In this document: one piece after another, positions 2,719 to 56,880 of the stretch
Layout of the letters: every line of letters starts with the position of its first letter
Numbering within the stretch: position 1 is the stretch's first letter
Assembly: GCA_008632985.1 (NCBI GenBank)
Contig: QPGO01000073.1
Coordinates: forward strand, 62,001 to 126,000
Direction of reading: 5' to 3'
DNA length: 64,000 bases
From: Psammoneis japonica
Lineage: Eukaryota
Translations under genes and position numbers: made by a program
The notes under the pieces: generated by a model
The model's input: only the letters and a program-made list of their open reading frames with translations
Database searches by the model: none
What the model was told of the DNA's origin: nothing

Positions 2719-2949
2719 GGTTCAGAGCAGTTGCAGTGGAAGGTTGCTGCGTGTTTCAGTTTGTTGTCGTGTTGCGTTGCCGCTTTACTGTATTATTGTG
2801 CGGCAAAACTCCAAGAGGCAACCGCAGGCAGGCGAGTTCTGCGCGAGCGACGCGAAGCGAAGATGAAGAGCGAGCTCGCACTCTTTTTCTGGTCTCACTG
2901 ACGAAACTCCTCATCTTCTTTTGCAAAAACCATGAAGAAATTAAACCAT

Positions 2950-25014: not shown

Positions 25015-28000
25015 CTACTTCATGCTAATCTCCCAGTTCTCCAATGCGGATACATTGGGTTTGCGGATCACAAGCACCTTGGTTTTCTTGTCAAACTCAA
25101 ACTCGAGCGTATCGCTCTTGTAAGAAATCGTCTTGGGAGCAGAGTCCACACCCATGACAACAATGCGTTCAATCATGCGCTGCTCCTTGAGCGCATCCAC
25201 AAGACTGGTCCAGCCGGAACCAATCGTTACTGCATTGCTCATCTTGTCGGCGGTAACCGAAAAGTGCGCTTCACCATACATTTCCTTCTTTGCATGATCA
25301 AAGGTCTCTTCATCGTCCATGTACAACATTCCCGAAGCTGCCTTGGTCTTGTCGAGCGCCACAAACAAAGTGTACGGATCGTTCTTCATGAGATTCGAGC
25401 TACGGCGGAGACGTAATTTTCTGGGAATCACGGAACCGCCACGCTGGTAGACTGGAATCTTGTCGATATCACTCGCAACCTTGACTTCAGCACTGCCTCC
25501 CTTTTCCGAATTGGTAACTTTGACTTGTTGCATGGAATCCACATCATACCAAAGGTCAGCCTTGGGAAACACCACGGTCGTTTCCGTCACGTCCGCCTCG
25601 GTAATGGGTTTGACAAGCAAGTCGGAACCTACCAAGTACTGATCATCCAAAGAAAACATGGCATCGACTTGCGGATACTGCATCCACATCATTCTCATGA
25701 CGGGCATGCCGGTCGTTTGCGCTTGATAAAAGACATTGTACCAATACGGTAGGAGCGCATACCTCGCCATGGCGGCACTCCTGAGCCGCACCATGGTTTC
25801 GTCTCCAAACATCCACGGCTCTCGTCTCTTGGAATCGTGATGCGCATGACCACGGAAAAAGGGAGTGTACGCTCCCGCCTGCATCCAACGCGTAAAGAGT
25901 TCGGCATCGGGATTTCCGAAAAAGCCTCCGACATCGGCACCGACAAAGGAGAGTGCCGCAATGTTGAGACTGAGCAACATGGGCGACGCAATCTTGAGAT
26001 GAGACCACTCTGCGGCATTGTCTCCGGTCCAAATGGCCCCGTACTTTTGACTCCCAGCAAAAAAGGCTCGACTAAGAACAAAGGGACGTGTGTTTTCTCC
26101 GTCGGCATTACGCTTGATTTGTCCCTCGGCCGTGGCACGGTGAAAGAGCATTCCATATAAATTGTGCCATTCACGGTGTTCGACATGGTCGAGATTGAGC
26201 AAATCTTTTTGCATGGACACTTCGGGACCGTTGAAGACGGACGGTTCATTCATGTCGTTCCACGTAAAGAGTGATGGAGACGATCCCTTGTAAATGTCAT
26301 ACGAAAAGCGTTGGGCCCACCAATCACGAACTTTTGCCGAGTAAAATCCAATACGACGACGATCCCGGCCAACACCAACCGTCATAATCCTTCTTGCCGT
26401 CCTTGTCCTTGATGTACAATCCCTTGGCCGTCGCTTCCTTGTGAATATAATAATCATTATCCGCTTGATATGCGGATCGACAATGGTCACCATGTTGCGT
26501 CCCTGTGACTTTAAACGCTCTTGCATGTCTTGTGGGTGGGGAAAGAGATTATCGTCCCACGTAAAGTATCGCTTTCCGTCCGTGTGTTCGATATCCAGCC
26601 ACAGTACATCGTACGGGTAATCCAATTCTTCAAACTTGTCGTGGACGTGATACACATCCTTTTCATCTTTGTAATTCCAACGGCATTGATGATAACCGAG
26701 TGAAAACATGGGTGGGAGTGGCATGGTTCCCGTCAAACGAGCATACTGTTGATAGAGTTTGGACGGAGTTGGTCCGGGCAAGAGCATGATATCCATAATA
26801 CCCGATTCACTCATCCAATGCGTCGTAGTTGTTGCTGGGTGGTCCTGTGGTTGCATGACATCGACAAAGGTTTCGGTAGGATTAAACCAAAAGACACCCG
26901 CCGTACCGTGCTTGATCGAATGGGATACAATTAGCGGAACGTGTCCATACAACGCCATGGTTTCATCCAGCTCGTATTCAAAGACGTCGAGATTGTAAAG
27001 ACGGTATGGTTCGGAATAATGCGCACCATCACCCATTGTCGTTTGCAACTGGGTCGAGGATGCGTGTTCGGGCAATCCAAACAAGTGTTGCGCATCAAAG
27101 GAAATATCCATGCCAACCGACATGGGTCCGTTTGGTTTGGAATCGGTATGGGAGGAAAAAGATTCCTCCCAAAGTCCCTCGCGGTCCAATTCGGCCTGGG
27201 TCATGGTCAAGTGACGACGATGGTCCTCGTCATCCACCTTTTTCTCTTCGCGCGTACCATCGGCATAGATTGCCAAGCCATCTTCCCAGTATCCTACAAT
27301 CTCTTTATCCTCCTTCTTCTCGTTGTTGGTTTCATCTGCGTCTTGCTTGTCCTGATCTTGATTTTCAATCGCATCCTGCTCTTGTTGTTCCGTAGTAGCA
27401 TCATCCACCTGTTTACGCCGAACTTCAAAATGCATCATGCCCTGATTCGACATGGTCAGTACGGGTCCAGCATCAATCTTGCGTTCGGCAAAGAGAAATA
27501 CCGAAAAGGGCTTGAGCCGAATCAGTAGGATTTGCATATCGTCATCGTCATCATGATTGCCATAGCGGAGCGCCATGTAATTTCGTGTCTTCTTTCTCCG
27601 ACTGGATCAACTTTTGCAACAATACCTTGCCGCTCTCGTCTTGACTACGAATCCATTCGGCATGTGCCGCCGGAGCGAGATTTTCCTCGAGAATCAATTC
27701 ATCGTACGTGACTCGTGGCTTGCTAAACTCTTTGCTACTACTGCTCTCCACGACTCGCATGCGTACCATTCCATCCTGCATGGCATGGACACTCCATATA
27801 AGGGTTTCCGGTAATCCAGATGATGTCACGGTGGCTGTATTGCTCAATAAGCCTCGAAGCGTTGCCGGTGGGCCACGAAAATACACATCTTGATCATGTT
27901 CAGCGTCATGATGTCCCAAGAGCTTGCGATGAATCGATTGCCAGATACCATCTGCAGCATGATGTTCTTCTTTTTCATCTCAGAAGGAACATGAAAATGA

Positions 28001-28173: not shown

Positions 28174-29745
28174 GGTGCTACTGATGCTTCTTATGGTGGT
28201 ATGATTGATATTACAACAACTCTTGGTATATGTCTGCTACTTCTTGCGATTGTCTGCTATGGTACCGTAGCATCGTCGTCACGAGATAGATACGAGTTCG
28301 GAGTCACGAGCGGATCGAGCTGAGAAAATCTTTGAGGTCATTCTCGAAGGGCAATACTCTAGAGTGACCTGTTTAACGGGATTGATTCACTCGATTACAA
28401 CACCCATAATGTCATTAATGAATGTATAATATAAAACCTCTCACGTGACTCGTAGGGCTACAGCAACACGAAGTGGCTGGGGCGGTCCTTCGAAAATTTT
28501 CTCCAAGTCGAAGAGGCATTTCCCCCTTTACCTGTAGTAAAGGCACCGTATTACGTTTAATTTCCGTTGACTGTGATTCTTTTATAATCATTATGAGTTA
28601 GCCGGGGCAGGGCTAGTTGGTCGCGCACGTTTGGGTTCGATGCAGCCGTGCAACTAGCCACACCCTGCAGGAAGAGCTGTTGGTGGCGCGCGAGCAGAAG
28701 CAACAAAGCAAAGAAAACGGCGTGGGTCAAAACGTTGTAAAATGACGCAACAACAAGCAGCGAGAAGAAACCCAACTTGACCCATGAATGCAGCGCGTGC
28801 ACATTGTCCAACCACTTCAACAGTGTCTCGCATTCCCAGCTTGTAGATGAGGGGACGGCGTTCGCGTTTCTCGCCACAGTGTTGTTGTGCGTTGTCGTGT
28901 TGTTTGCGCGCGAAGACCACGGGATCTATTTATCCGACAGTCACTGTGTTTTGGCAATGGCGGATGTTTCACTGTGTGCAATCTGAAGCCATTTTGAGAA
29001 GTGCTTCGCGACAACCCTGTTCGCACCGTCAAATGGAAATTTTTTTTGTGCAGATTCCAGAGTTCTTTCGGGGTGTTCTGTCAGACTTTTGAGTTGGCAC
29101 ACACATGTGTTAAAGGCATTAGCAAAATCAATGATGTGCAATGGCTTCAGAGACCGACACAAATTTATGTTCCATGTAGACCACGTAGATTGTGCACCGG
29201 CGGAAAATCCACGGCATGTCAATCACTCAGCAGCAATTCTGCGTGTGTCCTGCTTGCACCTCACACACATACACACACCTGCACAGTCTAATGACCGCGC
29301 ACACGTGCGCGAGATTGGATGTTTTTTAAAGATGTCCAAACCAAAATTACAAAAGTGGAATGAACAAGTTCATCACTTGCATTGCCGACATGCATCGTTG
29401 AACATGTGTTTCAAAGTCACACGCAAGAAACTGCAGCAGCACAATGACACGTGCCGCCGGTGTCCCACTTTACGACGTGACATCTCAGCGATGCTTGCAC
29501 GATTTCTCCGTTTCTTTTTCAATGTTGGGAGCAATTGCACAATGCATCCCACTGGGTTGGTCTCGTTGTGTGTCATTGAGAATTATGGATTTCTGTTTTG
29601 TCCAAAAAACACTCTCAGAACTGGCAAGTTAGACAGGCGCGTTGACAACAGAATGAACGATCAAAGCATTTTTGACAATGCTGAACACTTTTAACTAAAC
29701 TGTCCAGTGCTGCTGATCACAAGATGGAGCAGGCAAGACGAAACA

Positions 29746-30141
29746 GATGCATTCCAGACGCAGGTGGGAATCCGTGTGACATTGGGCCCGCAAACTTCTA
29801 CGTGCAAGCTCCGCAGCAAAATCACACGGCAATCAAAATGTCAATGATCGCCAACAGAAAATGAGGCAATTTTGCGAACGCACAAACTCGCCCATGATTG
29901 AAGCACATCATTTTTTACTTGGCCAGTTACATTCTTCAGACATTGAAGAATGCAACTGGCGCATTGTTGTTTCTATGAACTTGTCATGTGGAACGTCTGG
30001 GGCTTCGCAAAACAGCGAGTCTGGACAATTTTTTTTAAATGTCACACGTAGAAAGCTGCGTGCGAAACATGCGACGGATGATAAAAATCATTTGTGTCAC
30101 ACGTCAGCACTGCGAGCTCCCACCTGGGGCTGGAACGCGTC
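29746..30141. mobile_element. ~395-bp repeat unit with 24-bp imperfect terminal inverted repeats (MITE-like), copy 1
   Basis: Left end GATGCATTCCAGACGCAGGTGGGA and right end TCCCACCTGGGGCTGGAACGCGTC. Confidence 0.75.
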
Positions 30142-30361
30142 AACAGAGTCTTGTTGGTGCCAAAGGTGTTTGGCACATTAGAGAACCCCAATGCAGTGGG
30201 CCGCTTTTGTGACACCTCTTGGACCACTTCTTCGGTTGCTCTTGCAAAAGTAAAATGCAATGATGACACTGTGCCAACCAATGACAAAATGTCCAATCAC
30301 TGCCTTTGCATGCAGTTGAACAATGCACACTCAGTTCATTGCTTGCACTCGTCAAGCTGCA

Positions 30362-30758
30362 GATGCACTCCAGACGCAGGTGGGAATCCGTGTGACATTC
30401 GGCCCGTAGACTTCCACATGCGAGCTCCGCAGTAAAATCACACGGCAATTAAAATGTCAATGATCGCCAACAGAAAATGAGGCAATTTTGCGAATGCACA
30501 AACTCACCCATGATTGAAGCACATCTTTCATTACTTGGCCAGTTGCATTCTTCAGACATTGAAGAATGCAACTGGCGCATTGTTGTTTCTGTGGAACTTG
30601 TTGTACAAAATGTCTGAGGCTTCGCAAAACAGCGAGTCTGGACAATTATTTTTAAACATCACACGCAGAAATCTGCATGCGAAACATGCGACGGATGATA
30701 AAAATCACTTGTGTCACACGTCAGTGCTGCGAGCTCCCACCTGGGGCTGGAACGCGTC
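30362..30758. mobile_element. MITE-like unit copy 2
   Basis: Colinear with copy 1 and has the same inverted ends. Confidence 0.75.
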
Positions 30759-31154
30759 TGCAACGTTGCGCACACAAGCAGTGGATGCACTCATTGCAGC
30801 TCTTGTTTTTGCACTTGTGATCAGGAACGGTGCAAAAGCAAGTGCATCCAACAATTGGACACACACCAGGTTGAGTTGGTTTGGTCCCTGCCTCGCCCAT
30901 GCCAACACCAGCACCAGCAGAATTGGAGTCAATCGCACGACCAACTTTTTCGCCATGCGACACTCGTGCCGAAAACAAGTTGTTGCCACAATTCCGTTCA
31001 ATGCCATTCATCTGATGGGCATGAAGAAGAGCACCATCAGCGCCCACTCCATCACCAGTTTGGGCCCGCTCTTTCTGTTGCTGAGCTCATTCTGCCGCCA
31101 TTTCCTGCTCTGCTTCAGCTCTGATTTCTTCGTCTCGCTCACGCATGCGATCTG

Positions 31155-33600
31155 TCATTCTGTCCTCTGCACTACTGAAAGCTTTGGCAAAGGCATCCTC
31201 TTCTCCCACTCTTGATTCTGCCATGCTTTCATTCTCAAGGCGTCTGCATTGGCAACCTGGATGTTTCGCACTGCAAGGACAGCGCTTTCGAGTTGCAGCG
31301 CACCGAGGTTTGTTTGGTTCGCACCAGCTTTCAAAAATCCTTTGTCCGACTCGGCACCACTTTTTAGTGTCATTGAACGACTCACCCTGTTGCTCCAAGT
31401 TCCAAGGCTCCACCCCATGGGATCTCCTTTGGCAAAGCAATGCGAGGCATGCTCCTTCAAGCACGCGACACACTTTTCGTGCAAATCATCAAAATCCGAG
31501 TCGGCGCCGAGCGACTCATCTTGCTCTGACAGTGCATTCTCAATAAAGTGAAAGACAGGACTCCACTGAACAGAGTGAACCTTCCTCACCTCTGGTGGGA
31601 GAGAGGAAGGCACAAGGTCTCAAAAAGGTCGCACAACCTTCGTGCCATCAACTGATGCGGTTTGGCCAGAAAGCCAAAATCTCAGGCCTTCCTTGATTGT
31701 TGTTCCCGATGGAAGACGAAATTGCTTTGGAACCATGCATGTTTTGTTGTCACAGCAAAAGGTGGTTTCCACTGGACCATCATCAGAAGCCACGCCAATG
31801 CGGCCGTTTGTGCACGTGTTGCTGCCGCCCGTGGGAAAGGACCGCAAAATGGTCTTGAAACCGTCCAACTCAGAATGCATCATTTGCGTCATCTCCTCCT
31901 GAAAACTTTTGAATGTCCCTTTCAGACGATCACTTGTCACATGTCCAGAATCCCATGCTTTTTGATCTGTCACATCCGACACTGCTGCCACCAACATCTC
32001 CGTCTGCGAGTCCACATTCGCAAGCATCAAATCGGCTTTGCACATCAACTCGCACAGTTGTCTTGCCATGCCGACATGGGGTGGCATCCCAGTGGGGACA
32101 GTCAATGCCCCTTCTGTGGGCTCTGTTGTCACAAGAGATTGCAACTCCCCCAAAAGTCTCCTGTCGTGGAGGATTGACAGCTTCGAAAAGTCGTGACCCG
32201 GCACGCTCACCACAATTTCAATCAGTGACTCGGAATGATGTGTCATGCATGCAAAGCACCACAGTGGAACAGGAACAAAAGTCTTGTGTTCATTTGTCAC
32301 ATTCTCGCCAAATGTCATCATCACACCAAGTTTCACTTTTTCATTGGACATCAGATCTGCAAGCTTCCAATGAGGTGGAAGCATGTCAAATGACGCATCG
32401 TTCGGATCCAAACCCGCAAGAATGCGTCCAAGACATTGGTTGCCAATGCTGCCAAAATGCCAATGGCAATCAAGGACACTCCAGACAGCCCACTCTCCAC
32501 AATGTGCAACAGCTGGAATTGACCGGGGTGAAGTGGTCCCATTCAAGGCTGCAGGTCCCCGAGCCCTTTCGAATGCCACGCGGATTCACACGACTCGGAC
32601 ATGTGTGATTTGTGGTTTCGTCCAAGTGGGCCTGCAAAATTCCAGCAATCTGCTCACAACACTTGGTTGCACACATTCCTTCCTTCACATCTTCATCCAA
32701 AAAGAGAGCATCGTTGCCAACAAACTTGTCACCATGAAGAGCACAATGAACACCCGTGCCTGTCCAAAAGCACATCATCCAATCCAGTGGGTTGGCATGT
32801 GCATTTTTCTCTGAAAGCCTCTCTCCAGACTTGTCGGCCTTTGCTTCTGCACGCTTTCCAATCAAGCTGTGTTTGGAATTCTTCATCCGCAAGGGATCTG
32901 TGGATGTTGACCGGGCCATGAAATTCCACTGGGCAATGGTCCAGAACCACACAAACACGTTGTTGGCTTCTGTGCTCCATTTCAGCATGAGCTTGCACAA
33001 GGAAACGGGAACAGGATCAGCAGAGTTTTCATCTGCATCCCCTCTCTTTCTTGCTTGAGCATGTTCCTTCTTGCACCCAGCGAGGAACTTGTCAAACATT
33101 GCACGGAAGCTCTCAGGCAAGCACTCGTCTGCCATCTTGGCACCCCACATCATGGCGTCTTTGCATTTTTGGATGTCTTCACATGACTTGAGCTTTCCAT
33201 TGGCCTTCTTCTTGTTTGACACTGAGAAATGCAACACAAACTGGTTGTTCATGCCTGCACACACAAGGTCTTCTCGGTGCCGATTGAAGCAGTGCTCAGT
33301 TGGATCACAAAGGTCTTCAGCAGAAACCTCTCTGACGCCAACAGAACAACATTCAGGGTCATTCTCCTTCCAAAACTTGGCCAAACGTGCAAGTCTCTGA
33401 TGACAGTTTTGTCGGCATTTGTCTCCCATTTCCAACTGGGCGGTTTCATTGCACTTTTCGGCGAGGTCGCCAGGCGCTGACAAGTCACCCCCAAGGATTG
33501 GTGCATCATCATCAGTTTCACGCTGATGGGGGTGCATGCATCCACTGTGCCTTCCAGTTCACCCCCCTGGCATGTTGTGTTGTTGACATTGTCAGGAGAT
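31155..33600 (-). mobile_element. Decayed Crypton-like (tyrosine recombinase) DNA transposon ORF
   Basis: WNFMARS (catalytic Arg box), RGIRKGSGT (HxxRKG box) and SIPAVAHCGEW...VLDCHWHF...GNQCLGRILAGLDP...LPPHW, resembling stramenopile Cryptons. Tyr positions read C/H. Confidence 0.72.
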
Positions 33601-34687
33601 GGCAATGAAATGAACTGTTGCTGTTTGTCGGACTCAGATTGTGGGTTGATTGTTGCGATGGGAATGGCGCGAATGGCAGAAACTTTGATGACACAAATCT
33701 TACGAGTCCCGGGAGGGAGTCTTGTGGTGGCGCACAGGATCTTAAAATGCTGGCATGCACTCTGCGCAGAACACACATGGAAAAGACAAACGGCATCATG
33801 AGGCACTCCGGGAATGTCAGAACAGGCTGTTCTAATTTTCCGGAAGTGCCAACCCGGAGGGACGCAGCTCTGGCAGGTTTTTCCACTGGGAAGCACTTCT
33901 GGTGCTTTGGAACATTGGAGCAGAGTTTTTTGACAGTGACGTGTCAGGGTCATTTCTGTTTTGACATTCCCGAAGACCGCGCAATGCTGGCATGACATCA
34001 GAATTGTTGGCGATCATTGTCATTCCCAAACCGTTTTAACGCACGGCCTGACATGCCCACTCCGTCACAACAAACAGCTGATGCCTTTTTATCAACATCT
34101 GCACTTGCCGGAGGAAGTGTCTTGGTTTGCCGTTTTTGGTGGTCCCAATTTTGGAAGCATCAAAAGCAAAAAGATGCCATTTTTTGATGACCTCCAACAT
34201 TGTCGAGTCCGCTGCTTTATCACAAAGCACCAATGGCAGCTGGAGTGGTGCCGCCAATCCCACAGATGGTGGCGGCAATGATCAACTTGATGCATGTTGT
34301 CTGTGACGATGACTCCACCCAAAGAGAATGTTTGGAAAAATGAAGAATCATCTGGCAAAAACCGCCTTTCGTCGGAGTCACGAGTGCCGAAAGGTGATCC
34401 AGCGGCGGAAATCGATGGAGTGTGTGCCAGCAATTTGTGAGCCGAGACAATGGCATTGAATCGGCAACGAGAAGAACATGCTGTGTTGGGAATTCCTTTG
34501 CTGCTCGAGCTGTTTCCTGCTGGGTGAAAAGGGCCACCGTTTCTGCCACGTCGAGAGTTCGAAGCAGCAAACAACACTCAACCACAATCACTTCACAGAG
34601 ACACATCATGACAACAAGAGATTGCCAATCCGCTCAGGAATGCACCAGAAAATGCCATGAGACCAGCAGTGGCATTGTCAAAATGAT

Positions 34688-35086
34688 GAAGGGTTCCAGT
34701 CCTGGGTGGGACTCCGTGTGACATTGGGCCCGCAGAATTCCACGTGTGAGCTCCACAGCAAATTTGTGCTGCAATGAAAATGCAAATGATCGCCAACAGA
34801 AAAAGAGGCAATTTTACGAATGCATCTCCTCCTCCACACACTTGAAGTGCACCATTGGTGGTTTGCCCGGGTGTGTTCTTCAGACATTAAAGAATGTGCC
34901 CAGAGCATTTTCATTCTCATGAATGTTGAAAATGGAAAGCCTTTGGCTTTGCAAAACAGGGAGCATGAAACAATTTCAGAGAATGTGACATGCAGAAATG
35001 TGCGTGCGCAACATGCGGCGCGATCCAAAAAACTGTTGATGTCACAGTGCAGCAGTGCGAGGTCCCACCTGGAGCTGGAACGCGTC
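34688..35086. mobile_element. MITE-like unit copy 3 (more diverged)
   Basis: ggtgggactccgtgtgacattgggcccgcag...aatgatcgccaacagaaaa...tcccacctggagctggaacgcgtc. Confidence 0.72.
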
Positions 35087-35949
35087 TGGCATTGGCGTGC
35101 GCTCACTTCAATGTGCTGCTTTCTGTGCATGTTGTCTGGGTGCATGGACCGGCTGTTGCTTGTGTTCAATTTTGTAGCAATTGCGGCAGCTGCATGGGCC
35201 AATCATCTTGGAGCTGCGTGTGATGTGTGGGATGGTGTGGACGGTGTCACACTCTCACTGTTTCCCCAAAAAAAGCATCATGAATCACTTTCTCACTGAT
35301 GGCACTCGGCACTCGACTTCTTTGGAGGACTCGCCCTGACGGCTGCAGATTGCAAGTTTGTGTCCTCCGTGTGGAATGACACACACAAGACATGTGATGA
35401 TTCACCAATGACAATGAACGTTGACTGCGCTGCAATCGCGATTCTCCCAATGACACACCACCTGCAATTGTTGCAGCAGATCCATTGAACACATTGCCGC
35501 CAAGGGAGTTTGAACACTTTGACATCTCTGCCTGACGCATCATGGTGGCAGTCTTTGTCCCATTTTCTCTTGACTGACGCCACCCAAAGGGACAGTGTCG
35601 AGAGTGATGCCTTCATCCCCATTCTTTGCACAGCGGCTGGTTGTCTTTGCTCGGGAAGGTCATGGGGTGTGACACTCACATCGCTTGAGGACAACTCTCT
35701 CAAACTGCGTCAATGCATTCCGGCTGCACTGAGTTGATCTCCTGCATGCTCAGAGGGCATTGTTCCGAGCTTGATCATGGCAAGAAGTTCAGTTGCAGTG
35801 CTTTCACAGAATTCAGCTTTTTTGCATTGCCTTGAGGCGCGCGATTGTGGATTTGCATGTCAGTTGTGAGGAGATTGACAACGCACATGCGAGTGTGTGA
35901 TTCAGGAGATCTGGCACTCCAATCAAGTTCAAGTTGATCTTTGAAAAAA

Positions 35950-37520
35950 AAATGCTTGATGTGAACAACCTGCCATGCCCACAATTCAAAGACCAAAAGT
36001 CTGCGATCCGTTCATCGCCAAGAAGAGCTGCACCCCTGATGACAAGGAGTGGACCAGGTTGTCGAGGACCAAGATTGTTGAGGTTCCTCCTCAGCCAAGT
36101 GTCGTCATTGGTGGCAGACCAACTGGTCTGACTGCTGCCATTGACTGCAACGAGAGCTGCTTGACCAGCAAAGGAATGGCACAGTTGTGCGAAGCCCAAG
36201 ATGCATTTGCCAAGAGTGGTTCTGTGTTTGAGAGAGCTCAAATGGTTCGCTTGGACCCCGGGCGGGCATTGTCATGCTCCGCTGTCATTTGTGCACTGGT
36301 TTTTCAGAAGCATGTGCTCCTGCAGGAGGCAAGATTGATTCTCATCTCGGAAACACTTTGCAAGTTTATTGAGTTCCCTGCACTCAAACGGTTTGCTTGG
36401 ACCCCGGGTGGGTGTTGTCATGCTCCGCTGTCATTTGTGCACTGGTTTTTAAGAAGCATGTGCTCCTGCAGGAGGCGAGATGGATTCTCATCTTGGAAAC
36501 ACTTTGTGAGTTTATTGAGTTCCCTGTGCATCGTTTCACATCTTTGTGCTGCTTCAGAATGCTCACAATGGTTGTCATGTCCTGTTGTTGAAATGCAGAC
36601 CAACGCATGGATTCATGGAGATCACAAAGATCTTGAGAACACGCTCCATTTGGAAGTGAGCAAGATGGGCCAACAAATCATCGAGTTGACAACAGCGGCG
36701 CTAGATGCAAAAGATCCACCACCCATGGAGGATGGAGGACATTGAATGCCGTCGGGAACTTGGTCCGGACCAGCTGAGAACTGGTGCAGAGTGTGAAGTC
36801 TGCATTCGTGCTGAGGATGTCATTCGCCCCTTCGTGCTTGTGAGAATTGATTTGCATGGAGGCGCACATGCCTCCAAGCCTCTTGACCCTTCCAAAGAAG
36901 ATGTCAAAGCTTTGCAAGCTTCACTGCCAGCTGTTTGCCCCAAGGGCACCAAGCAGAAGGGCAGTCCAGTGACGGGGGTCATGCGCATGACCGGTTCAAC
37001 CTCCACTTGAAGGGACGTTGAACAGCGAGGCTGTTCAGGGAGGAACTGGTGCCAGCTGCAGAGTTGATGGTGTTTTTGTTTCACCCCAACCATCCCTGTG
37101 ATCGCGGCATTGACTGACTCCACTTCAAGGTCATGGAGAGCAATCAGGATCTTGACAACGTTGTCTCCAGGGACTGTGGATGACAAAGCACGCCATTTTG
37201 ATGGCTCCAAGAGGCATGGAACTCAACAAAAGCTTCGTCATGTGCCTTTACAAGCAACTGAAGAATGCCACCATGGACGAGTTTGTCCAGCAAATCAGAA
37301 ATGAGAAGTGCACCCAAGTGACATGCTCTGACAAAGAGTCTCAAGGCCCATGCTGAAAGTGTGGAAGTCCCAGCCGTGCAGCGGTGTGGCAAGGTCAACA
37401 TCATGCAACAAGTCACCAAAGACACAGGAAGGCAAAGACGAAGATCTCTTGGATGAACCGTTGGAAGATTCAACAACAGGATCATCATCGGGTGACGAAC
37501 CAGCCAAGGGACATTGAGTC
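35950..37520 (+). pseudogene. Decayed FAD-dependent oxidoreductase-like host gene fragment with ~147-bp internal tandem duplication (36241-36385 / 36386-36530)
   Basis: VVIGGRPTGLTAAI (degenerate GxGxxG), EAQDAF and ERAQMVRLD. An apparent intron runs from ~36507 to ~36598. Confidence 0.5.
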
Positions 37521-39540
37521 TTCAAGCATGTGTTCTTTCTGCAGTGGATTTGTCATCGTCCGTTGCTCCCAACACTCCATTCTGCAAATTTGGATTTGGG
37601 ACGACTCCTGCCGACAGTGGCAAAGCTGTGCAGAAGTTGTGCACAACCAAGCCTTGAGTCTCTGTCTTGTCAGATGTGGAGAAATTTTGTCTGACTGTGA
37701 CTGCTGCTGTCAAGAGCTCTCTGCACCAGCACACAATTTTTCCAAATGCGACAACGCTGCTGCATCGGCGCTTTCTCCAAACCTTGAATTTGAGACAATC
37801 AATGGCTGGTGCATTTTTCTTTAGGATGATTTTAAATGATTTCAATTTCTCACCCTCATGGTTGTTGCCACTCGCCTTTAGAATGACTGCACTCCCTGAT
37901 GAGGTGAGTGACATTTCCCCGAAGGTTGCAAGTTGTGGCATGGAGTGCACCACCTGCTCACAATGATTTGATTCTCAAATGGTGTTCAGCTTTGTTGCCG
38001 CCAACTGTTGCGTCTTCTTCAGTGCTTGACACTTTTCTCAACTGCACTGCACCGCAACTTGGTTGTTGCTGTCTTGAGGGACTGTGGCTCAACGAAGAAA
38101 AAGAGGTGGACTGGGCTGGTTCCACTTTTGTGCACGTCGTGCGTGTGTCACCGGGCATCTGCCTTGTCTTGCCCTTCCAGCAGTGGGATTGACGGAGCCC
38201 ATGTTTTTGAAACTTGGTGAGAAGCTTTCATCCCGCAGCAGGAATGTGCACCCGACAGCTTTGCAGCCCACACATTCAGCGTGCTTCATCAGGATTGGGA
38301 CAACCTGATCTTGAGCTTCCAGTGCCCCTGTGGCCCTGTGCCAGGGTTCTGCACATGTCAACTCCATTTTTTCAAGGCAAACGGCTCCACCTCGTGCTCA
38401 CCCCAGTGTCGGGTCTGCCACCCCTCTCACACAGGGCAGGTGCAATGACGTGTCATCTCCTGGGTGCCAAAGGATTGAGCACAATGCTCGCTGCGGTCTT
38501 GACTGAGTGCAAAATCCCAATCCATTCAGATGACATTGCCAACCTGGCGATTGTTGCAGAGGCTGTCAAGGTGCCAATCAATCCTTTCGAATGGGATTTG
38601 CTGCATTCTTGGGGTCGTGGAAGTGCCACTCTCACACTTTCTTGGCATTCCGTCCAATGCTTTGAAACTTGTGGATCCTGGCATTTCATTTGATGTTGCT
38701 GACATTGAACTTGACAATGGCTTTAGTTCGCCTGACCATTTTGATGGAAGGGGGCATTCCAGGCTTGGATGCAATTGTGAATGCAGGACAGTGTAAACCA
38801 TGTGTTGCACTCCACTGCTCGCTTTGCTGGAGAGCTGGAAACGCGTTGAAAGCCCCACAGCTCTGCCAGCATCGGTTGCAAGCAACATCTCCAAAGTGTC
38901 ACTTCGTTTCTTTTTGGGAAGGACAAGTTGAAGAGCGGCGATGATTTTTGGTGCTTCCAAGAGGCAAGAATGGAGAGAACGAGAAAGAGGGTGGGTTGGT
39001 GTGGCAACAGACGAATCAGGAGTTCTAGACCACGCGAGTTTAACTCAAGCGTGGATGAAATTGCAGCAGCAATTGTGAACGCAGAACGCAGATGGTGGCG
39101 ATGATCTAGTGCTGTTGTGTCAATGGAGGAAAATCACACTCGAGCAGAACCGAATCCAGGGAACAATTGTCCTTGCAGTGTGCTGGCACAGAAAGTCAAG
39201 AACTGCATTGTGTTTCATCATAAATGAATTGTGCCTTGTCCTCCAAAGACAGGTTTCAAAAGCAGACTATTTCCAAAAAAGTGGGTGTCTTGGTTGAACT
39301 TCCAACTTCAATTTTCCTTGGCGATGCCAAGAAGAAGGCAGACAAAATCAACCAAATCATCTTTCTTCTTCCCCAAAACGGCAACATTTTCCACGGGAGA
39401 GACGGGATTGTCTGAAAAGCCTCTGGCATCCAACCGGTTCGCAATGCTCCACAGCTTGGGCTTCGTCAACCCATTTGCTTGCCGAAATTCGCGCAGGGGT
39501 GCCGTTGTCCCTTTGCAGATGTCTTCCTGTGTGCAGGTTT

Positions 39541-39783
39541 TGACAGAAAATGAAGGTGACTGGGTGGAAGAAAACAACAACTCCTTGCTGCTGCCTGAAC
39601 AGCAGATGAGTCTCCGTGCAGAGACCGTTGCAGGAGCCGAAAGACTGGTGTCGTGATGTCGGCACTGCTGTCATTGTTCTTGTGAGCCGAGTGGCTTGAA
39701 AGCAAGCTGCATCGCGCAACGCACGCAGAACTGAGAGCACACACACTTGTGTGACAAACTAAAATCTTGTTCAAATCCTGTCA
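39541..39783 (-). repeat. 3' LTR
   Basis: TG...CA ends, adjacent to the PPT, paired with 43705-43948. Confidence 0.93.
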
Positions 39784-39957
39784 CTCCCCAGTTTGCTTGA
39801 GGGGTCAACAGCAATGGATTCAAAGTCGGATTGGTTGAAAGCCTCGGGATCAAAGTTCCAAAACATTAGAGGACAAAGGAGGCTCCAATGTTTGGGAGTG
39901 ACCCCAATGCTTGCTGAGGATGTCAGCTGGGTTGCGGGAGCCTTCGATGAAATGAAG

Positions 39958-41730
39958 CTAAAGGAAACCGGAGGCAATCGCCTCACGCACACGATGGAAT
40001 GAGAGGACGGTGTGTTGCTTGTCTAACTTGGAGTGCGGGATGGCAGCACTGTCCACAACCGACTTGTTGTCTCCAAACATGTGACATGTTTCACGAATGG
40101 GAACGCCAAGGTGACGCAAAGTGATGCACAGATCAATGATCTGCTCAACGCATGTCCTTGCGGCAACAAACTTGGATCCACACGCAGCGGTCTCAACTGT
40201 TGCTTGTTTCTCAGAGAACCAATCAGCCGGAAACTTGTTGAGGAAATGGAGGATGCCGGTGACAGAGCGTCCAGTGAGCATGCAATGGAACAAGTTCGCA
40301 TCAACGCAGTGTGTGGTGGTGAGAAACTTGCCAAGCAGCTTGGGTGCATCTTGCGGGAGCAGCTCTTCTACCTCCCCATGCACAGATTGAGCCCAGTCAC
40401 ACACGGGCTCAGGGAGGTCCGAACAGCCGGGCTCCTCGGTGCGCACTCGGAGGGCGCCATGATGCATCTTGGAGAGGAATCCGCAGATGCGTTTGGCGCG
40501 GTCTGGGTGGCCTTGACGGGGTGCTGCACGGAAGCCAGAAAGGGACATGACAGCCACAGCAATGTCAATGTGACCTGGAGATGCGGCCCATTGCAGGGAT
40601 CCAATCAAGGGTTGGAATTGGTGGATGCCATCCGGTTTGAGCAATTCGGAGGTGTCAAGCTCAGGGTGGTCACCCTTGTCAAGGGGTGAAAGCACATCAG
40701 TGCGGGGCTTCTCCTCAAAAAGGTGCACACAGTTGTCAACCATGTGCCCAGTGTGCTTGCAGGGAGCAAGGCACAGGGTGCCGTCTGGGTCACGGGTGAA
40801 GTCGCAGCCAAGATGGAACTCCAATGGTCCAGTGCCCTTGAGCTTGAACTTGTGTTTCTCCATGAGGGTGTCTGCAAAAGCCTGGGGGTCCTTCATGGCA
40901 AAGGCCAGGTCATCCACACACACTGCCATGCATTCGCAGTGGTCACCATTCCTGCGCAGCCAGATGACGTGTTCAGCTTTGCATGGGAAGAAGCCTTCAG
41001 CATGCAAGCAATCAACAAAGCATTCATGCCATCTGAGTCCGGAGCTGCGGAGTCCATGCAAAGCCTTGTGGATGACAAGGATGTGTCCTTCCAGGCCGCC
41101 AAACTCGGGGCCTGCTGTGATGTGCAGTTTCTCTTTGGTCGCAGCTTCGAGGCAGGCGTTCCCAATGTCAGTGGCCCAGGTCTCTAGTTCGTTGAGTTCA
41201 GCCAGGAAGATCATCATTCGCAGGCCACACAGAGACACTGCTCCGGAATGGACACTGTCGACGGGCACGTCTGTGAGGTGTCCATTGGCAACAAGCCTTG
41301 CTTTGTGCCACCCGTCATGTTTGACGTCACAGACGAGGTGCACCCAGATCTTCTTGTGTCCTGATGGAGCACTGGAATCCTCGTGGTGTCCACAGTCGTG
41401 GAAGACCTTGCACTCATCAAGCTGAGTCATCTTGAGGTCCGTTGCGCCTCCCCACTTGCAGTTGCCATTGCGCTCATCAAGGGCCATGGCATGCTTGCAG
41501 TCCCGTGGCACTTCACACCCATGCTTGCATCGTGGCGCAGCATGAAAGGTGCATGACTTGGCTTGGTTGGCCATGCAGAATGGCTTCTTCTGGCGAAGGG
41601 CTGTCTTGCGAAAACATCTCCATCCTTTGGTTTCTAGAAGGCCGTGCTCACGCACGCAGATGGCACAGGTTGTGGGGTCGTCCTTGGCAATGATGGCAAG
41701 GGGTTGGACGTGATCTCCCCATTCTCCCAT
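39958..41730 (-). pseudogene. pol: Copia reverse transcriptase-RNase H, inactivated (YVDD reads CVDD)
   Basis: HKARLVANG, DIGNACL, KALHGLRSSG, VCVDDL, VDANL, GRSVTG, FGDNKSV. There is no Tyr in 590 aa. Confidence 0.93.
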
Positions 41731-43704
41731 TCAAGCATGATGTTGCAGCTTGAGCCTTTCCAAGAGGGATCATGGGGTTGCAATGGTCCTTCGTGCGATG
41801 CAATGCACTGGAACTTCCAGAGGGTGGTGTCCTCGTCTTCTTGCTCAATGTGGTGCATGATGTCATTGCAGGCCAGCAAGTGAACTTGACCAGTTCAGGA
41901 TTGCCTCCAATTTTCCAGTTGTGGTCCTCAACGGCTTTGACGATGCAGGCTCTGTGGCATTGACCATCCTCTTGTGTCTTCATGAGGAAGGTGCATCCGA
42001 TGACATCCTTGGGGTCAAAGACCGGCATTTTGGGCATCCTGATTGCCTCCCCATCTGGTGAATCTGGCAAATCCTCGGAGTCGTGGTGGGATTTAATGAC
42101 AGGGTCAGCAGTTTTCTCATCAGGAGGATCAAGATGCAGGTTTGGAGCAGACGGATCACGGGCAGAGTGCACGTTGGAACGGCAGAAAATCTTCTGAGTG
42201 TCATCAGAAAGCATCTTGAATGTCATTTGGTGACCAATGTGTTCGGCGATGCCAACGAAGTGACTGCGCAATTCATGAGATTTGGACAGCCAGTCGGAAT
42301 CATCCAGGTGGCAGCACACGGGTTCCCACCATTGAAAGCGGAGGAGTGGGCTGATGTCAGGAGTGGAGCCGGATGGCACCTCGGCAGGGTTGCGCCAGTG
42401 GAGCTTGGCTGACGCCATGTGGTTGAGCACAAAGCACACGCACATCAGGGTGAGCAGTCAGGTGCAAGGCGGGGACTCAAAGCAATCCATGATGGTGTTG
42501 GCCATGGTCTTCACAGTTTGGCAGTGGTGTTCAGCAAAATTCTGATGCTGGTGGTGAGGCTCGCTTTGCCAACTAGAGATGAAGAGGGCACGAAAGATGC
42601 CAAGAACCTTGTTGCTGATTTCAACCTGAGCACGGTCGCTGATGAGCTTGGATGGGGCACCGCGGTTGCGAATGTTGTCCTCGAGGGTGTTGACAAATTC
42701 TTTGTCAGTTTTGGTGCCATGCACGTCAGTGACGAGAGATTCCGTGCCGACAAAGAGCTGGGTGCTGGTGCAACCAGAGTCAACAGCAGGGGTGTCGGAG
42801 CAGACCGTGTTGGCAGCAAAGGGTTCATTGCGTTGGTGGACATTGAGAGCCAGGTTGGGCGATTTGTGTGCCTTTTTCAGGTGCGTGCTGGCTGGCATGC
42901 GGGCGTGCTGCATTGTGCAATCAAAAGTGCGGCAGACAGTGTCCTTCGGGAGAAAGCCAAAGCAGGGGCAGAGGGACTCAAAGTCGGGATCCTTGGGATT
43001 GAGTTCGCGCTCATGGCATTCACAGAAGAAATCAGATGTCGGGAGCAGGTGATCATCAAGGACGGAGCCTCTTCAAGCATGGCGTTGTTGGCAACCGGTT
43101 GCTTGATGACCTGGGCTCGAATCCTGGGTGTTGCATTTTTCAAGTCGTTGGGTCAGATTTGGTCTAGTTGGTCAATCTTGATTAAATCCTGTCATGGTGC
43201 GATTCTCAGAGTGACGCACGCGTCTCTCTGTCTCAAAAACAGGGCATGCCCACCTCGGGGGGATGGCATTGTCGGGAAGCCCCCGTGAAACCATTGGGGC
43301 AGAACAGGGTGTTGCCGGTGTGCAGAGGGCAACCGTCAGTTCAGCGCACTTTGAACGAGGGGGGCGCAAAAAATTGCCCAGGGAATTTGGAATCTGTCAG
43401 TGATGCAGTCAACATCGGTGCGCTGTGGGGAGAGCCATGCATTGCGGCGAGAGTCTGCATTTGGGCCCTGTCTTCAACTCCGGCATCGAAGATGCAAGTG
43501 GGTCCCTTGACAGCAGTGGAGCTTTGTGAGAGGAGCGATTCAACCCACCCTTCCAAATGTTCCTGGGCAACTTAGAAACCTTTTGGGGGCGATTCAGGGA
43601 CAGCCACATCAGACAGATTTGTGACATGTGGGGAGTGACAGAATTTGAAGAAGAACCAAATGCCGGTGTGTCACTCTCTGGCTGAAACACATCCAGTTGC
43701 TGTG

Positions 43705-43948
43705 TGACAGTTTTGAAGATGACTGGGTGGAAGAAAACAACAACTTCTTGCTGCTGTCTAAATGGCAGATGAGTCTCCATGCAGAGACCATTGCAGGAGC
43801 CGAAAGACTGGTGTCATGATGTCGGTGCTGCTGTCATCATTCTTGTGAGCCGAGTGGCTCAAAAGCAAACTACATCGCGCAACGTGCACAGAACCAAGAG
43901 CACACATGATTGTGTGCCACAAACTAAAATCGTGTTCAAATCCTGTCA
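43705..43948 (-). repeat. 5' LTR
   Basis: Paired with 39541-39783 and followed by TSD GGTTT. Confidence 0.93.
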
Positions 43949-45493
43949 GGTTTTGCAGTCAAGTTCTGGGAGTTCAAAATGGCCAGACGGACTCAACAGC
44001 AACGCTCTCTTTTGATGAAGAGCGGCTTGATCATGTGCCAAATCCTTGCGCAGCTCATCCACCTCTTGCCCCATGGTTTTGAGTTCTCGCTTGAGGTTCG
44101 CGCGGCTCGCCAAAAGCATGCGGATGTTTTTCTTTTTCAGTTCCAAGCTCCTTTCCATCTCAAGGATCTCCTTGAAAAGCCTGTCTTGTTGGTCTGGTTG
44201 CGCACCGGCACCATTGGAGTTGGTCAAGTGTTGGTGTGGCTGGAGGGGGATCGGGGAGGGCATGGGAGGGAAAAACTGATTTGCATGAGCAGCTGCTGCT
44301 GGCGCCGGTGCAGAGCACTGGCAGTTGGCAGCTGCAGGCAGTTGGCAGCATCATGGTGGTTGGCAGCAGCAGGATCAAGATGCGGGCTTGTGGCACCCAG
44401 GGCCCTGAGGCAGCGGCACTCGCAATGTCGCAGAAGCAGTCAGCGTTGCAGGGCATGCCATTCACAGTCTGGCTGCTTGCACCAAATGCCGTCTGCCTGT
44501 CTGTCTCAAAGATCGTGGCTGCCGGGCGGCAGTGGAGCCGTGCCCGTCTGGTCACCTGTCAACCGGACCGATGGCGTGAATCCCGCGAACGAGCCGTTTT
44601 GGTTTGGAGCTTGACCACGATGCCCGTCCCCAGCTTGACCATCTTGCATGACGCCGACCAGCCGTTCAAAGACACTGCGATTGGGAGTCTGCATGAAGCT
44701 GTTCGGTCGACTGGGTCATGGTGAACCAAAGCCGTCAAGCAAAGGGGGCAGAAACGCCGACTGCTGCGACGGCGACGAGCCGTTTTGGTTTGGAGCTTGA
44801 CCATGATGCACGGAGCCTTGCCGCGCGGAGTGCTGCTGCAGGTCAAAGCCACCACCAATGTGCTGGAAGTTGTCATTCACATGATTGAGTTGTGGCAAAC
44901 CAATGCCATTGAGCAAAGGGGATGACAATGCCGACCGCTGCGACGGCAACGGATTCAAAAATGCGTTGTCTGAGCTGTGCGGCGAGGGCTGGTGGTTCTG
45001 AAACAAACAATCAGCAAACGACAACAAATGCAAGAGACTGTGTGTTCAACCGACGCGATGGGAAATGGTGAAAGAGACGGGTGTGCACCATTGTGGTTTC
45101 AAATGTTGCGTGTGTTGTGTTTCAAACTTCATGTGTTCTGTGTGTCAGAACGCGAGCTGGGAAAATTATGAGAGAGAAGCAGTGATGCTTTTGAACGCGG
45201 AAAGACCTCGAAGCCGACGGCCGCTGTTTTGAAAAATAACGGCAGAATTCGGATTTGGAGCAACGGCCATGAAGAGGCAAATTGTGTCTTGGTGGCGGCT
45301 GACGCGCCTGCGTTGACTTTGACAACGTCTTTGACGTCACGCTGATTCTAGGTTTTCGAGGTAAACGATTCGAAAATTGCCCTGAGAATGTTTTGACGAC
45401 GGAAGAAGCGCACGAGCTAGATTATCTTGCAATCTAGCATTCAAGCCCTTATCATTGTCAAAGATAATTTTTGAGGGACTACTATAACATCTA

Positions 45494-54800: not shown

Positions 54801-56880
54801 ATGTTCCACAGCTTGCATTTTCCAAAACCACACTGTTGCTTTGTCTTTCCATTTGCTTCCCTCTTAGATTGTGTGCCATCATGGACATCTTGGCTGCTGC
54901 ACCATCAAAGTTGTTGGGCTGGTGGGAACCAGCATTCATGGAGAAGAGCTCATCTTAAGCATCGACTTTGGTTTTTGGTTCGCTGCTTTGCCATCAATCA
55001 AGTCATTGATTTTTTGTTGGCACCCCCATGCATGGCACCAAGGCAAGTGGCATCACCAGCAACCGTGCCAACAGCACTGTGGTTGGAGAGCAAATCTCAT
55101 GGGGGCAAGAAAGAATGGCAGCAGACCAACAAGACAGAGAATTGTGAGATTGTTGTTGTCAAATGGAAGCAACTTTGACTTGGCATGAAAAAACATGCTG
55201 TTTCCTTTTGCTGGAAGGGGACTCATCTCCATTTTCTGTGGCACCCAGTTGGGCAGCAATGCAACAAACTGCACCAGCAGTGTGCTTGCCAGTTTGGCAG
55301 CATCACCACCAATCACACCAAGAGCTCCATTGGTTGGGAGAGGAAATCTCAAAATGGAGCAACAGATGAGCAAGACAACAAATGTGAGATTGCTGTTGTA
55401 AAAAAAAGCAACTCCAGGCCCAGCATGCAAAAGACTTGCCATGTCAGTTCCATGGATTGACTCAAGTGGAAAAATGGCCACCACCATCATGGAAAACAGC
55501 AATGGAATCTGCTGGAGGTGACAGCAAGTGTCTCTCATTGGAGTGTGCTGCTGTCATGAGTGCATTGCAAATGTCAGCAAGCATGCTGCTTGGTGGCATG
55601 CTTCAAAACAGCATGACAATCAACAGCAAAAAAATCCAACATGCCAATCAAAGAAACACTGTCTTGTTGTCATGTGATGGCACTTCCACCCGGTTGATGA
55701 CGCAGCTGTGGACGTGGGAGACGAGGTTTTGTTGCCATTGTCATTGCGTGTTGCAGTGTTGGGTGCAAGCTCAAGTTGTGACATCATGCACATGCTGTGA
55801 AATGTGCAGCTTTTCCATGTGGGTGATGTTTGTTTTTTGCATGTCAAAACCACCCAAAGCTGCTCCCTGATGTGTGGGTTCTTATTTGCCAAAGCCAGGT
55901 GATTTTGCTGCACCCAGCCAGCCAACTGCCAAGCTTGAGAGTGCACTGGCACACCTTTCCATTTGGCCAGTCTTAAATTAAGACTCAACAAGCATGTGCT
56001 GCTCTCATCAAAAGCATGCCTTGATTCTTGACAGAAAACTCCAGGTGAGAGTGCGCGCCAGTGCACTTTGAGATGCTCTGGATGCAGGTGGGAACCCGCG
56101 CAATTCTGGGCCCTCAGAATTCTGCGCACAAGCTCCACAACAAAATCATTTGGCCACAAACACACCAATGATTGTCAACAGAAAAAGGGGCAATTCTGGC
56201 CACATCCAAATGCATGCACGCCTGCACGAGGGTGCACCCATGCTCATGTTTGTTCTCACAAATGGACAAAATAAAAGGGCTGGGCCATGCAAAACAGGGA
56301 GCATGAAACAATTCTGCAGAAAAGACCGCACAAAATGCACATGCAGGACACACAGCATGCAACAACAAAAAACACTCTCTTTCATGTCATGCTCGAGCAG
56401 TGCTGCAAGCAAGACCCCTCCCATCCGGGGGGCTGGAGAAAGCACTTTTCTGGTTGACTCATGTGATGACATTAATTTCAGTGCTTTCATGCTGGTGGTT
56501 GGCTGCAAATGCACACCAGCAAAAATGACCAAAGCCCTTGTTGCTGCGCTGCCTTGTCTGGTGAAAATCTTGCCTGGAGGCCTGGCGGGAATTTTTGTTC
56601 CCCAAGCCTGATGCATGTTCTGTCCCAGGGCCACATTGTAAGTTGCAAATGGTGACTTTTGCAGTCAGCTCCTTCCTTGTGTGGTGACGTCTCACTGAGG
56701 ACTCAGTTCCACTGATGTTGTCTGAGATCCGCTGTGTTTTGGACAGAGGGCATCACACGCATGTGCCAGCTGCAGCATGAGATCGGATGTTTCAATCAAC
56801 TCAACCCTGGTCAACGGTCGCTGCCAATCTGATTGGTTGAAAGTCTTGGGATGTCAACTCCGATTCTCATTCCAACGGAC
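51840..56880. other. Hypermutated repeat domain D (TpA- and CpG-depleted)
   Basis: TA is nearly absent except in TTTAAA-like runs. Cys/His-rich ORFs occur in six frames and a MITE-like copy is present. Confidence 0.85.
56072..56440. mobile_element. MITE-like unit copy 4 (highly diverged)
   Basis: gatgcaggtgggaacc...gggccc...agctccaca...aatgattgtcaacagaaaaaggggcaatt...tcccatccgggggctgga. Confidence 0.55.

Follow-up and report, generated by a model that had tools for sequence, protein, structure and literature searches.

The window analyzed here, a 64,000-nucleotide stretch of the genome of the diatom Psammoneis japonica (GenBank assembly GCA_008632985.1, contig QPGO01000073.1, positions 62,001 to 126,000 of the forward strand), contains a transposon-rich domain in which the dinucleotide TpA has almost disappeared, having been replaced by TpG and CpA. 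This domain lies between two gene regions, and includes a Ty1/Copia long terminal repeat (LTR) retrotransposon. The conversion of TpA to TpG or CpA in domains such as this one is probably the product of an enzyme-driven, defense-like process aimed at silenced or foreign DNA, for which adenine deamination is the most likely chemistry. The original prediction, made from the letters of this stretch, presented the process as undescribed, a claim that is outdated, given that hypermutation of A:T to G:C restricted to TpA has already been reported in the alga Bigelowiella natans, according to the available part of a recent preprint (bioRxiv 10.64898/2026.01.13.699255).

The depletion of TpA is deep, continuous, and sharply bounded. 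In the 2-kb intervals starting at positions 30001 to 42001, the observed/expected ratio (o/e) of TpA was 0.12, 0.02, 0.05, 0.06, 0.08, 0.04, and 0.07, in comparison with 0.42–0.77 in the gene-bearing intervals, where the CpG o/e is about 1. The same intervals, between 30 and 44 kb, have high ratios of TG (1.43–1.77) and CA (1.51–1.88), and have lost only part of their CpG (0.46–0.72). At a finer scale, 29 consecutive 500-bp intervals (30501–45000) contain between zero and five TA each, with TpA o/e of 0.00–0.15, in comparison with a minimum of six, and mostly 13–38, in the flanks, where the genes mostly have ratios of 0.4–0.9. The scarcity of TA, the abundance of TG and CA, and the partial survival of CpG described in the original prediction are all confirmed by these two profiles, and its proposed extent (28600..45230) agrees with the edges derived from the exact TA positions, at about 28655/28738 and 45167. 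Only 39 TA are found between 31700 and 45166, with none between 43926 and 45166, and 11 were counted between the LTRs of the Copia element, close to the "about a dozen" estimated by eye.

Two additional blocks with the same signature, absent from the earlier account, are found on either side of the main domain (Table 1). Taken together, the cores of the three blocks hold 69 TA in 21,500 bp, in comparison with 1,502 in the 34,990 bp of the flanks, so that TA is 13 times less dense in the cores. The GC content is 0.49–0.55 inside the domains and 0.45–0.51 outside them, and the stop codons TGA, TAA, and TAG number 681, 43, and 31, respectively, over the six frames inside, versus 854, 393, and 408 in the gene DNA. 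The disappearance of TA thus leaves TAA and TAG nearly absent, which results, in turn, in long open frames in all six frames.

The direction of the change is indicated by the reverse transcriptase (RT) of the Copia element, which was compared with 120 RT homologues (54–64% identical) at 383 columns with at least 70% agreement. None of the 20 conserved tyrosines has been kept, with 11 having become cysteine (TGY), seven histidine (CAY), and two phenylalanine, while the conserved Phe (13/13) and Trp (9/9) are all intact, and His (16/17), Leu (36/39), Gly (32/33), Lys (18/22), and Asn (8/9) are mostly so. When the minimal single-base change was deduced for each of the 78 changed conserved columns, 23 were of the TpA type (13 of A>G after T, and 10 of T>C before A), in comparison with four other A>G and two other T>C changes, 14–16 CpG transitions, two other C>T or G>A changes, 18 transversions, and 13 unresolved columns. 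The excess of A>G at TpA over other contexts, which had been proposed as a check, is thus present (23 versus six), and the A>G and T>C changes fall predominantly on TpA, the dinucleotide that is hit in B. natans. No TpA-type changes are present among the 28 and 46 changed columns of two Copia loci used as controls, in which TpA is normal. On the evidence of the tyrosine codons, then, TA is the ancestral state, converted to TG or CA, as first proposed. The Copia frames contain no Tyr at all in 1,066 codons, with 5.5% Cys and 6.8% His, in comparison with 3.3–4.2% Tyr in the flanking genes, and the RT motif reads MAVCVDDL where the consensus of 36 aligned sequences is VAVYVDDL.

Similar conversions were found in a small number of related copies from other sources. 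Among 80 related metagenome Copia loci, the TpA o/e is 0.02 and 0.13 in two, and 0.33 in one, and conserved tyrosines have become Cys or His at 14 of 20 columns in L031, 13 of 15 in L066, and seven of 20 in the third locus. The outcomes differ at the same columns, which indicates that the conversion events were independent. Seven of 239 homologous proteins have Cys or His at three or more conserved Tyr columns, including P0325, which has no Tyr, three Cys, and six His at 10 such columns. The erasure of TpA is, however, an exception among the environmental Copia copies (three of 80 loci). The Copia family of the window was not itself found among the proteins of the "near" and "shorter" length classes, in which the best matches are just 64–66% identical. 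One of the proteins, P0402, a Copia-type RT that is 54% identical to that of the window, is publicly labeled as a Weeksellaceae bacterium metagenome-assembled genome, and probably comes from a contig of eukaryotic origin that was assigned to a bacterial bin.

The two strands were hit about equally, as had been claimed, given that the conserved tyrosines of the four affected copies, when pooled, yield 25 Cys (TGY) and 27 His (CAY). Both products, TpG and CpA, are also overrepresented in the main domain, as expected of a process of the B. natans type, with o/e ratios of 1.4–1.9. The LTRs provide evidence on timing, as the two LTRs of an element are identical at the time of its integration. In the window, they differ by seven adjacent TG/CA doublets, two TA/TG and four CG/CA changes, four other transitions, five transversions, and three indel columns. 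A TG/CA doublet implies that each LTR took its own, independent course from a self-complementary dinucleotide, either TA or CG; in the four gene duplications of the window used as controls for the substitution spectrum, such doublets account for 2 of 143, 4 of 293, 0 of 94, and 0 of 64 differences. The LTRs retain one and three TA, in comparison with 10 and seven CpG, which indicates that the loss of TpA has been both faster and more complete than that of CpG, and only nine differences of neither the CpG nor the TpA type are found in approximately 243 bp.

The DNA beyond the target-site duplication (TSD) of the element, GGTTT, is free of TA on both sides, as is the fragment of a cellular DENN-domain gene. 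In the repeat at the left edge of the domain, 15 of the 27 variant rows listed, taken from the best 40 of 1,048 rows, have CA or TG in the window and TA in the majority of the other copies in the genome, and the reverse was found in none, so that the conversion would be restricted to particular loci, rather than affecting the whole family. Strand symmetry, the differences between the LTRs, the affected flanks, and the unconverted copies found elsewhere all point to a process that involves the chromosomal DNA of particular loci, which acts after integration, on both strands, and over whole transposon-rich intergenic domains. The positions of the TA and the read depth also bear out the earlier claim that the whole interval, including its single-copy DNA, is affected, and that the effect stops at the neighboring genes. 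As in B. natans, discrete mobile or foreign regions are found beside a normal genome, here in the form of three sharp-edged blocks with Copia and high-copy repeats.

The decay of CpG, which is found in the same domains, is a separate process. Between 44501 and 45000, for example, there is no TA, yet the CpG o/e is 0.95, while the CpG o/e falls to as little as 0.04 in the 500-bp intervals of the second and third blocks. Locus L031 keeps 26 of 31 conserved arginines, and many other metagenome Copia loci (L030, L026, L038, L059, L036, and others) combine a CpG o/e of 0.10–0.25 with normal TpA, which indicates that heavy CpG decay is common in environmental Copia copies. In the RT of the window, this decay has left its mark on the conserved Arg columns, 11 of 31 of which now read Cys, Trp, His, or Gln. 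As a sole cause, CpG decay was rejected, given the changes of conserved Tyr (TAY) to TGY or CAY, and the loss of TpA with CpG intact, both at 44501–45000 and in L031; the original prediction had already considered it to be insufficient, and Tyr codons cannot, in fact, be derived from CpG. A tandem array of 23/46-bp units in the second block (5149–5823) has a single variable dinucleotide, which reads TG 14 times, CA 11 times, CG five times, and TA never. The use of this array to determine the polarity of TpA was rejected, because CG is present in five of 35 units and TA in none; it is, rather, a clean internal record of the decay of CpG to both products.

The few surviving TA are not distributed at random among sequence contexts. 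With the flanking genes standing in for the ancestral base composition, the density of TA inside the three blocks relative to the flanks is 0.003 for RTAY (where R is a purine and Y a pyrimidine; one inside, 481 outside), 0.04 for RTAR (10 and 402), 0.065 for YTAY (16 and 398), and 0.31 for YTAR (42 and 221), a difference among flank classes with a chi-square p = 3e-23. The most resistant tetranucleotide is TTAA (0.60), while ATAT, ATAC, GTAT, and ATAG are extinct inside the blocks. The classes rank in the same order in the metagenome loci, all three taken together (0.086, 0.17, 0.21, and 0.27; p = 0.02). The numbers fit a situation in which a purine at the second base 5' of the adenine, and a pyrimidine on its 3' side, each have a roughly two-fold effect. 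A preference of this type speaks for an enzyme, or for a step that reads structure, and against a general bias.

In the proposed mechanism, a targeted activity would turn the A:T pair of TpA into G:C where chromosomal DNA is silenced or foreign, as part of a genome-defense-like system of the kind measured in B. natans. The adenine of T-A would be deaminated, on either strand, to hypoxanthine, which pairs with C, and the candidate effector would be a TadA/ADAT-like or other deaminase. The process runs to saturation faster than CpG decay, with ATAT and RTAY being lost the most, and TTAA and YTAR the least, and it may be linked to heterochromatin or methylation. Adenine deamination is the simplest chemistry, and the T at position −1 fits it; to our knowledge, the substrates of ADAT/TadA always have U before the edited A.

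Several points weigh against this interpretation. The deamination of adenine by such an enzyme, its role in defense, and the signal that targets it are matters of inference, and, as TpA is self-complementary, an attack on T fits the data equally well. Some of the TG/CA doublets of the LTRs may be derived from CpG, as in the 23-bp array. The variant rows of the left-edge repeat were picked by their support, and not at random, and the reads may be the very ones from which the assembly was made, with a library type that is unrecorded. The flank preference depends on the composition of the flanking genes as a proxy, and a direct test at the polarised Tyr sites, with a purine at −2 in 11 of 25 Cys and eight of 27 His outcomes, gave the expected trend, but without significance (p = 0.39).

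The same targeted process might instead attack the thymine of TpA, for example, by TET/JBP-type oxidation to 5-hydroxymethyluracil (5hmU) or 5-formyluracil (5fU), which mispairs with G and would thus lead to T to C changes. Thymine hypermodification occurs in protists, and 5-formyluracil is mutagenic, and all the counts presented here are equally compatible with changes of T to C and of A to G at T-A. The sequence provides no preference for the thymine over the adenine route, though, no report of 5hmU/5fU-type bases at TpA in diatoms, or of 5hmU at TpA in dinoflagellates, was found in the literature, and the B. natans authors, in the available part of their preprint, favor adenine deamination, albeit also without proof (bioRxiv 10.64898/2026.01.13.699255). 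The attack on thymine is considered unlikely. An explanation with no dedicated mutator, that is, the passive, GC-biased handling of T:G mismatches in heterochromatin, by a system resembling very short patch (VSP) repair or MBD4/TDG, or else GC-biased gene conversion among repeats, must be considered more improbable still. It has in its favor the decay of CpG in the same domains, where T:G mismatches and their repair would be expected, and the slightly higher GC content described above; the depletion of CTAG by VSP repair in Escherichia coli offers an analogy. Hyperactive repair of T:G to C:G should, however, protect CpG, yet its o/e is 0.04–0.7 in the same blocks, and the loss of TpA in the LTRs has outrun both the background change and the loss of CpG, while gene conversion is not specific to a dinucleotide, and cannot act on the single-copy parts. 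Error-prone repair of the Pol-eta type (WA to WG, where W is A or T), one of the candidates of the original prediction, is likewise disfavored, because ApA is untouched (AA o/e 1.10–1.38 inside the domain), and conserved Lys and Asn have mostly been kept.

A-to-I editing of the retrotransposon transcripts by an ADAR- or ADAT-like enzyme, fixed by reverse transcription, is suggested by the fact that the best-characterized element is a retrotransposon. The footprints of ADAR and APOBEC in animal retroelements are also deaminase-type clusters of transitions in mobile elements, but they arise on RNA or reverse-transcription intermediates prior to integration, and are strand-asymmetric, whereas the changes in the window are post-integration and symmetric, and extend beyond the retroelements. 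The Cys and His outcomes are balanced, LTRs that were identical at integration differ by TpA-type changes, the single-copy flanks beyond the TSD and the cellular DENN fragment are free of TA, and a purine 3' of the A is disfavored, in contrast with the 3' G preference of ADAR. Retrotransposed hyperediting of the sense strand before integration was thus rejected, and RNA editing in general, which the LTRs and the flanks refute for the most part, is very improbable, even though ADARs favor U 5' of the edited A, as noted in the available part of the preprint (bioRxiv 10.64898/2026.01.13.699255). The least credible of the alternatives, which has practically no chance of being correct, is an artefact of sequencing, base-calling, or assembly caused by modified bases, for which the possible identity of the read set with that of the assembly might be invoked. 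The original prediction named base-calling as its possible undoing, and this is excluded by read contigs built from exact 31-mers, which carry the single-copy TA-free parts at depths of 55–61, like the flanking genes, with 3–11 other letters per approximately 1 kb. These flanking genes, derived from the same data, are normal, and TA-free Copia copies are found in independent metagenome assemblies, with partly or fully converted homologues, such as P0325, in other protein collections. The enzyme-driven conversion of TpA on chromosomal DNA thus remains the probable interpretation.

This process resembles that of B. natans in its A:T to G:C transitions at TpA, which result in TpG or CpA, depending on the strand, in regions of foreign or mobile DNA. 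In the available part of the preprint (Mettrop et al., bioRxiv 10.64898/2026.01.13.699255), 231 of the 302 nuclear point mutations of mutation-accumulation lines were found in an integrated giant virus and virophage, and 230 of these 231 mutations of the hypermutable region were A>G or T>C, all on TpA, at approximately 1000 times the background rate. Windows that are poor in TpA and rich in CpA + TpG cluster in that genome, coding sequences with little TpA have an excess of reverse-transcriptase and DDE domains, and an adenine deaminase, ADAT2, is proposed as the unproven effector (bioRxiv 10.64898/2026.01.13.699255). There are also clear differences between the two cases. The present host is a diatom (a stramenopile), whereas B. 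natans is a chlorarachniophyte (a rhizarian), and the process has hit an LTR retrotransposon together with other repeats, embedded single-copy DNA, and the dead fragment of a cellular gene, rather than the integrated giant virus and virophage of the preprint. The window is saturated, with a TpA o/e of 0.00–0.1, in comparison with the Rho of 0.45 given in the available text for the nucleocytoplasmic large DNA virus region of B. natans, and, in contrast with that species, it contains a co-occurring, separable CpG decay. It has a preference for RTAY over YTAR, and the main text of the preprint contains neither a tri- or tetranucleotide context nor any reference to diatoms. The rate in B. natans was measured de novo, whereas here the process is read from its end-state sequence alone. 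The window adds a second lineage, a saturated end state, post-integration action, independence from CpG decay, and a flank preference to what is known of this type of process.

Fungal repeat-induced point mutation (RIP) bears a similarity in that it acts at the level of the DNA, is dinucleotide-specific, produces only transitions, ruins mobile elements where they lie, and can extend into adjacent unique DNA. It runs in the opposite direction, however, from C:G to T:A, typically CpA to TpA, and leads to AT-rich sequences with many stops, whereas here TpA is destroyed, GC rises, and TAA and TAG vanish. For this reason, RIP was rejected as a classification; the host is a diatom, and not a fungus, and the process observed in the window is a mirror image of RIP, rather than a member of it. 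In relation to the duplication that is associated with RIP, most of the domain is repeated, and its parts at 35.7–39.0 and 43.95–45.17 kb, which are single-copy at a likeness of at least 85%, are equally free of TA, which could represent either spill-over from the repeats or targeting by domain. The deamination of 5-methylcytosine, in turn, yields the same products, TpG and CpA, and is present in the same blocks, but it cannot remove TpA, and its extent varies independently of the loss of TpA.

No report of TpA hypermutation in diatoms was found in the literature, and a search for terms in the available parts of diatom papers, including PMC9998398, recovered no mention of TpA or of dinucleotide bias. 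Diatom DNMT4, which is related to the fungal RIP factor RID and has an unknown function, is found in 31 of 60 species, in some cases with chromodomains, according to the available part of the same study (Hoguin et al. 2023, PMC9998398), and represents a candidate to be set against the presence of TA-free repeats.

A broader proposal, which is offered tentatively, as it may well prove to be wrong, is that a diatom defense system edits the double-stranded DNA of silenced domains, deaminating the adenine in T-A on either strand, with the best results in ATAT/RTAY, and is aimed by chromatin state, and not by duplication. Its effector would be either a naturally occurring deaminase of adenine in DNA or a modifier of thymine that is just as unknown, and the system would be shared with the Rhizaria, and might be old and widespread in the SAR group (Stramenopiles, Alveolata, and Rhizaria). 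If the process in the window is of the nature that the evidence suggests, the TpA hypermutation of B. natans would not be the curiosity of a single species, and an ecologically dominant group would possess a genome defense based on transitions, the mirror of RIP and the second great class of its type. It would also imply that some activity exists by which the A:T of a defined dinucleotide becomes G:C in chromosomal DNA, which would be of interest for both mutation biology and base editing. In practical terms, gene callers would report long false frames, encoding "orphan" proteins rich in Cys and His, in TA-free domains (30501–45000, 3001–6000, and 52001–56500 in the window), and the dating of such elements by LTR divergence would be inflated. 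Scans of TpA versus CpA + TpG can map the process across the genomes of algae.

Table 1. Features of the window, with positions numbered from its first letter.
Feature	Position	Strand	Evidence and remarks
Main TpA-depleted domain, whole interval between two gene regions	28656..45166		TA positions, 500-bp and 2-kb profiles
Second TpA-depleted block	2943..6146		TpA o/e 0.00–0.05, CpG o/e 0.07–0.33; includes the 23/46-bp tandem array
Third TpA-depleted block	51941..56638		TpA o/e 0.03–0.11, CpG o/e 0.04–0.71
Ty1/Copia LTR retrotransposon, high-copy family	39541..43948	-	RVT_2, paired LTRs, TSD
Target-site duplication GGTTT, left copy	39536..39540		
Target-site duplication GGTTT, right copy	43949..43953		Perfect 5-bp match to left copy
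3' LTR (relative to element)	39541..39783	-	Termini TGACAG...CTGTCA
5' LTR	43705..43948	-	LTRs of 243/244 bp
Reverse transcriptase / RNase H frame	39958..41730	-	Catalytic motif CVDD
Partly depleted left zone, high-copy repeats	28656..30700		TpA o/e about 0.2–0.5; summed depth 3,300–39,000
Repeat copy 1 of pair	29744..30141	+	91.5% identical to copy 2
Repeat copy 2 of pair	30360..30758	+	Partner of copy 1
Low-copy repeat, long minus-strand frames	31003..34337	-	Summed depth 137–373, about 2.5–7x single copy
Single-copy TA-free stretch	35672..39006		Word depth 56–90, like flanking genes; TpA o/e 0.00–0.09
146-bp tandem duplication, 92% identical	36237..36526	+	9 differences: 5 CpG-type, 2 TG/CA doublets, 2 transversions
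Decayed, frameshifted fragment of cellular DENN-domain gene	37511..38913	+	Pfam DENN, tblastn
Single-copy flank of Copia insertion	43954..45166		0 TA; depth 54.5
Unaffected left neighbor, glucosidase II alpha (GH31) gene	25015..27606	-	Pfam; TpA o/e 0.44–0.72; composition control
Unaffected right-side gene, squalene/phytoene synthase family	48684..49943	+	Pfam, 500-bp profile

The Ty1/Copia identity of the element is based on its RVT_2 domain (Pfam, E 2.8e-20), the paired LTRs with TG...CA ends, and the 5-bp TSD. Its reading frame contains one in-frame stop and one frameshift, its translated matches to the 80 Copia loci span positions 39835–43072, and its summed depth in the read contigs is 900–54,000. 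Just inside the LTR starts, AAAA (39547–39550) is found opposite TTT (43711–43713), a clustered change that is unlike the other differences between the LTRs.

The copy numbers of the rest of the main domain were estimated from the depth of the read contigs, with a single-copy depth of about 55. High-copy repeats are found at 28.7–31.0 and 34.3–35.7 kb. The pair of repeats starting at 29744 and 30360 have 29 differences, which include eight TA/TG or TA/CA, four TG/CA doublets, and six of the CpG type. A third copy (34694–35086) is 73% identical, and a 130-bp repeat is common to the third block (56071–56198) and the main domain (29745–29874), also with 73% identity. In the low-copy repeat, the frame at 32473–33558 may be the remnant of a tyrosine recombinase (Crypton/DIRS-like), although this is a lead only, derived from a language-model feature match in a protein atlas to DUF3504/Phage_integrase clusters (score 0.97, with 180/256 shared); Pfam returned no match to this frame, even at E ≤ 10, and no usable match was found in the protein atlas for a second frame. 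The parts of the domain outside the Copia element had no matches to the 80 Copia loci in the translated comparison.

In the single-copy stretch, the long read contigs contain three differing letters per approximately 1.1–1.2 kb. The DENN domain was the only one above its cut-off in a Pfam search of 112 reading frames of the TA-poor blocks (E 3.8e-7, 30.6 bits versus a cut-off of 23.4). The fragment has 45 homologues, of up to 2,965 amino acids, and its tblastn pieces change frame near 38600; among the changes at its conserved columns, L has twice become P (CCA) and also S (TCA), Y has become H (CAC), and R has become W/H/Q. On the right-hand side, a single read contig, which spans positions 44565 to 47000, joins the flank of the Copia insertion to the neighboring gene.

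The closest homologues of the GH31 protein are those of diatoms, with up to 66% identity, which places the window in a diatom with no near relative in the collection searched. The gene DNA of the window also contains two tandem segmental duplications, 16349–20841 versus 20856–25442, and 7206–9567 versus 12163–14521, which are 69–86% identical, and one of which contains a weak LysM-like match. In the right-hand neighbor (45555–47000), sequencing run X2, which is listed as "DNA?", covers only parts of the gene, and little of the main domain, with intron-like gaps in the gene at 45916–45995 and 46568–46696, which suggests that this run is RNA, and that the gene is both spliced and expressed.

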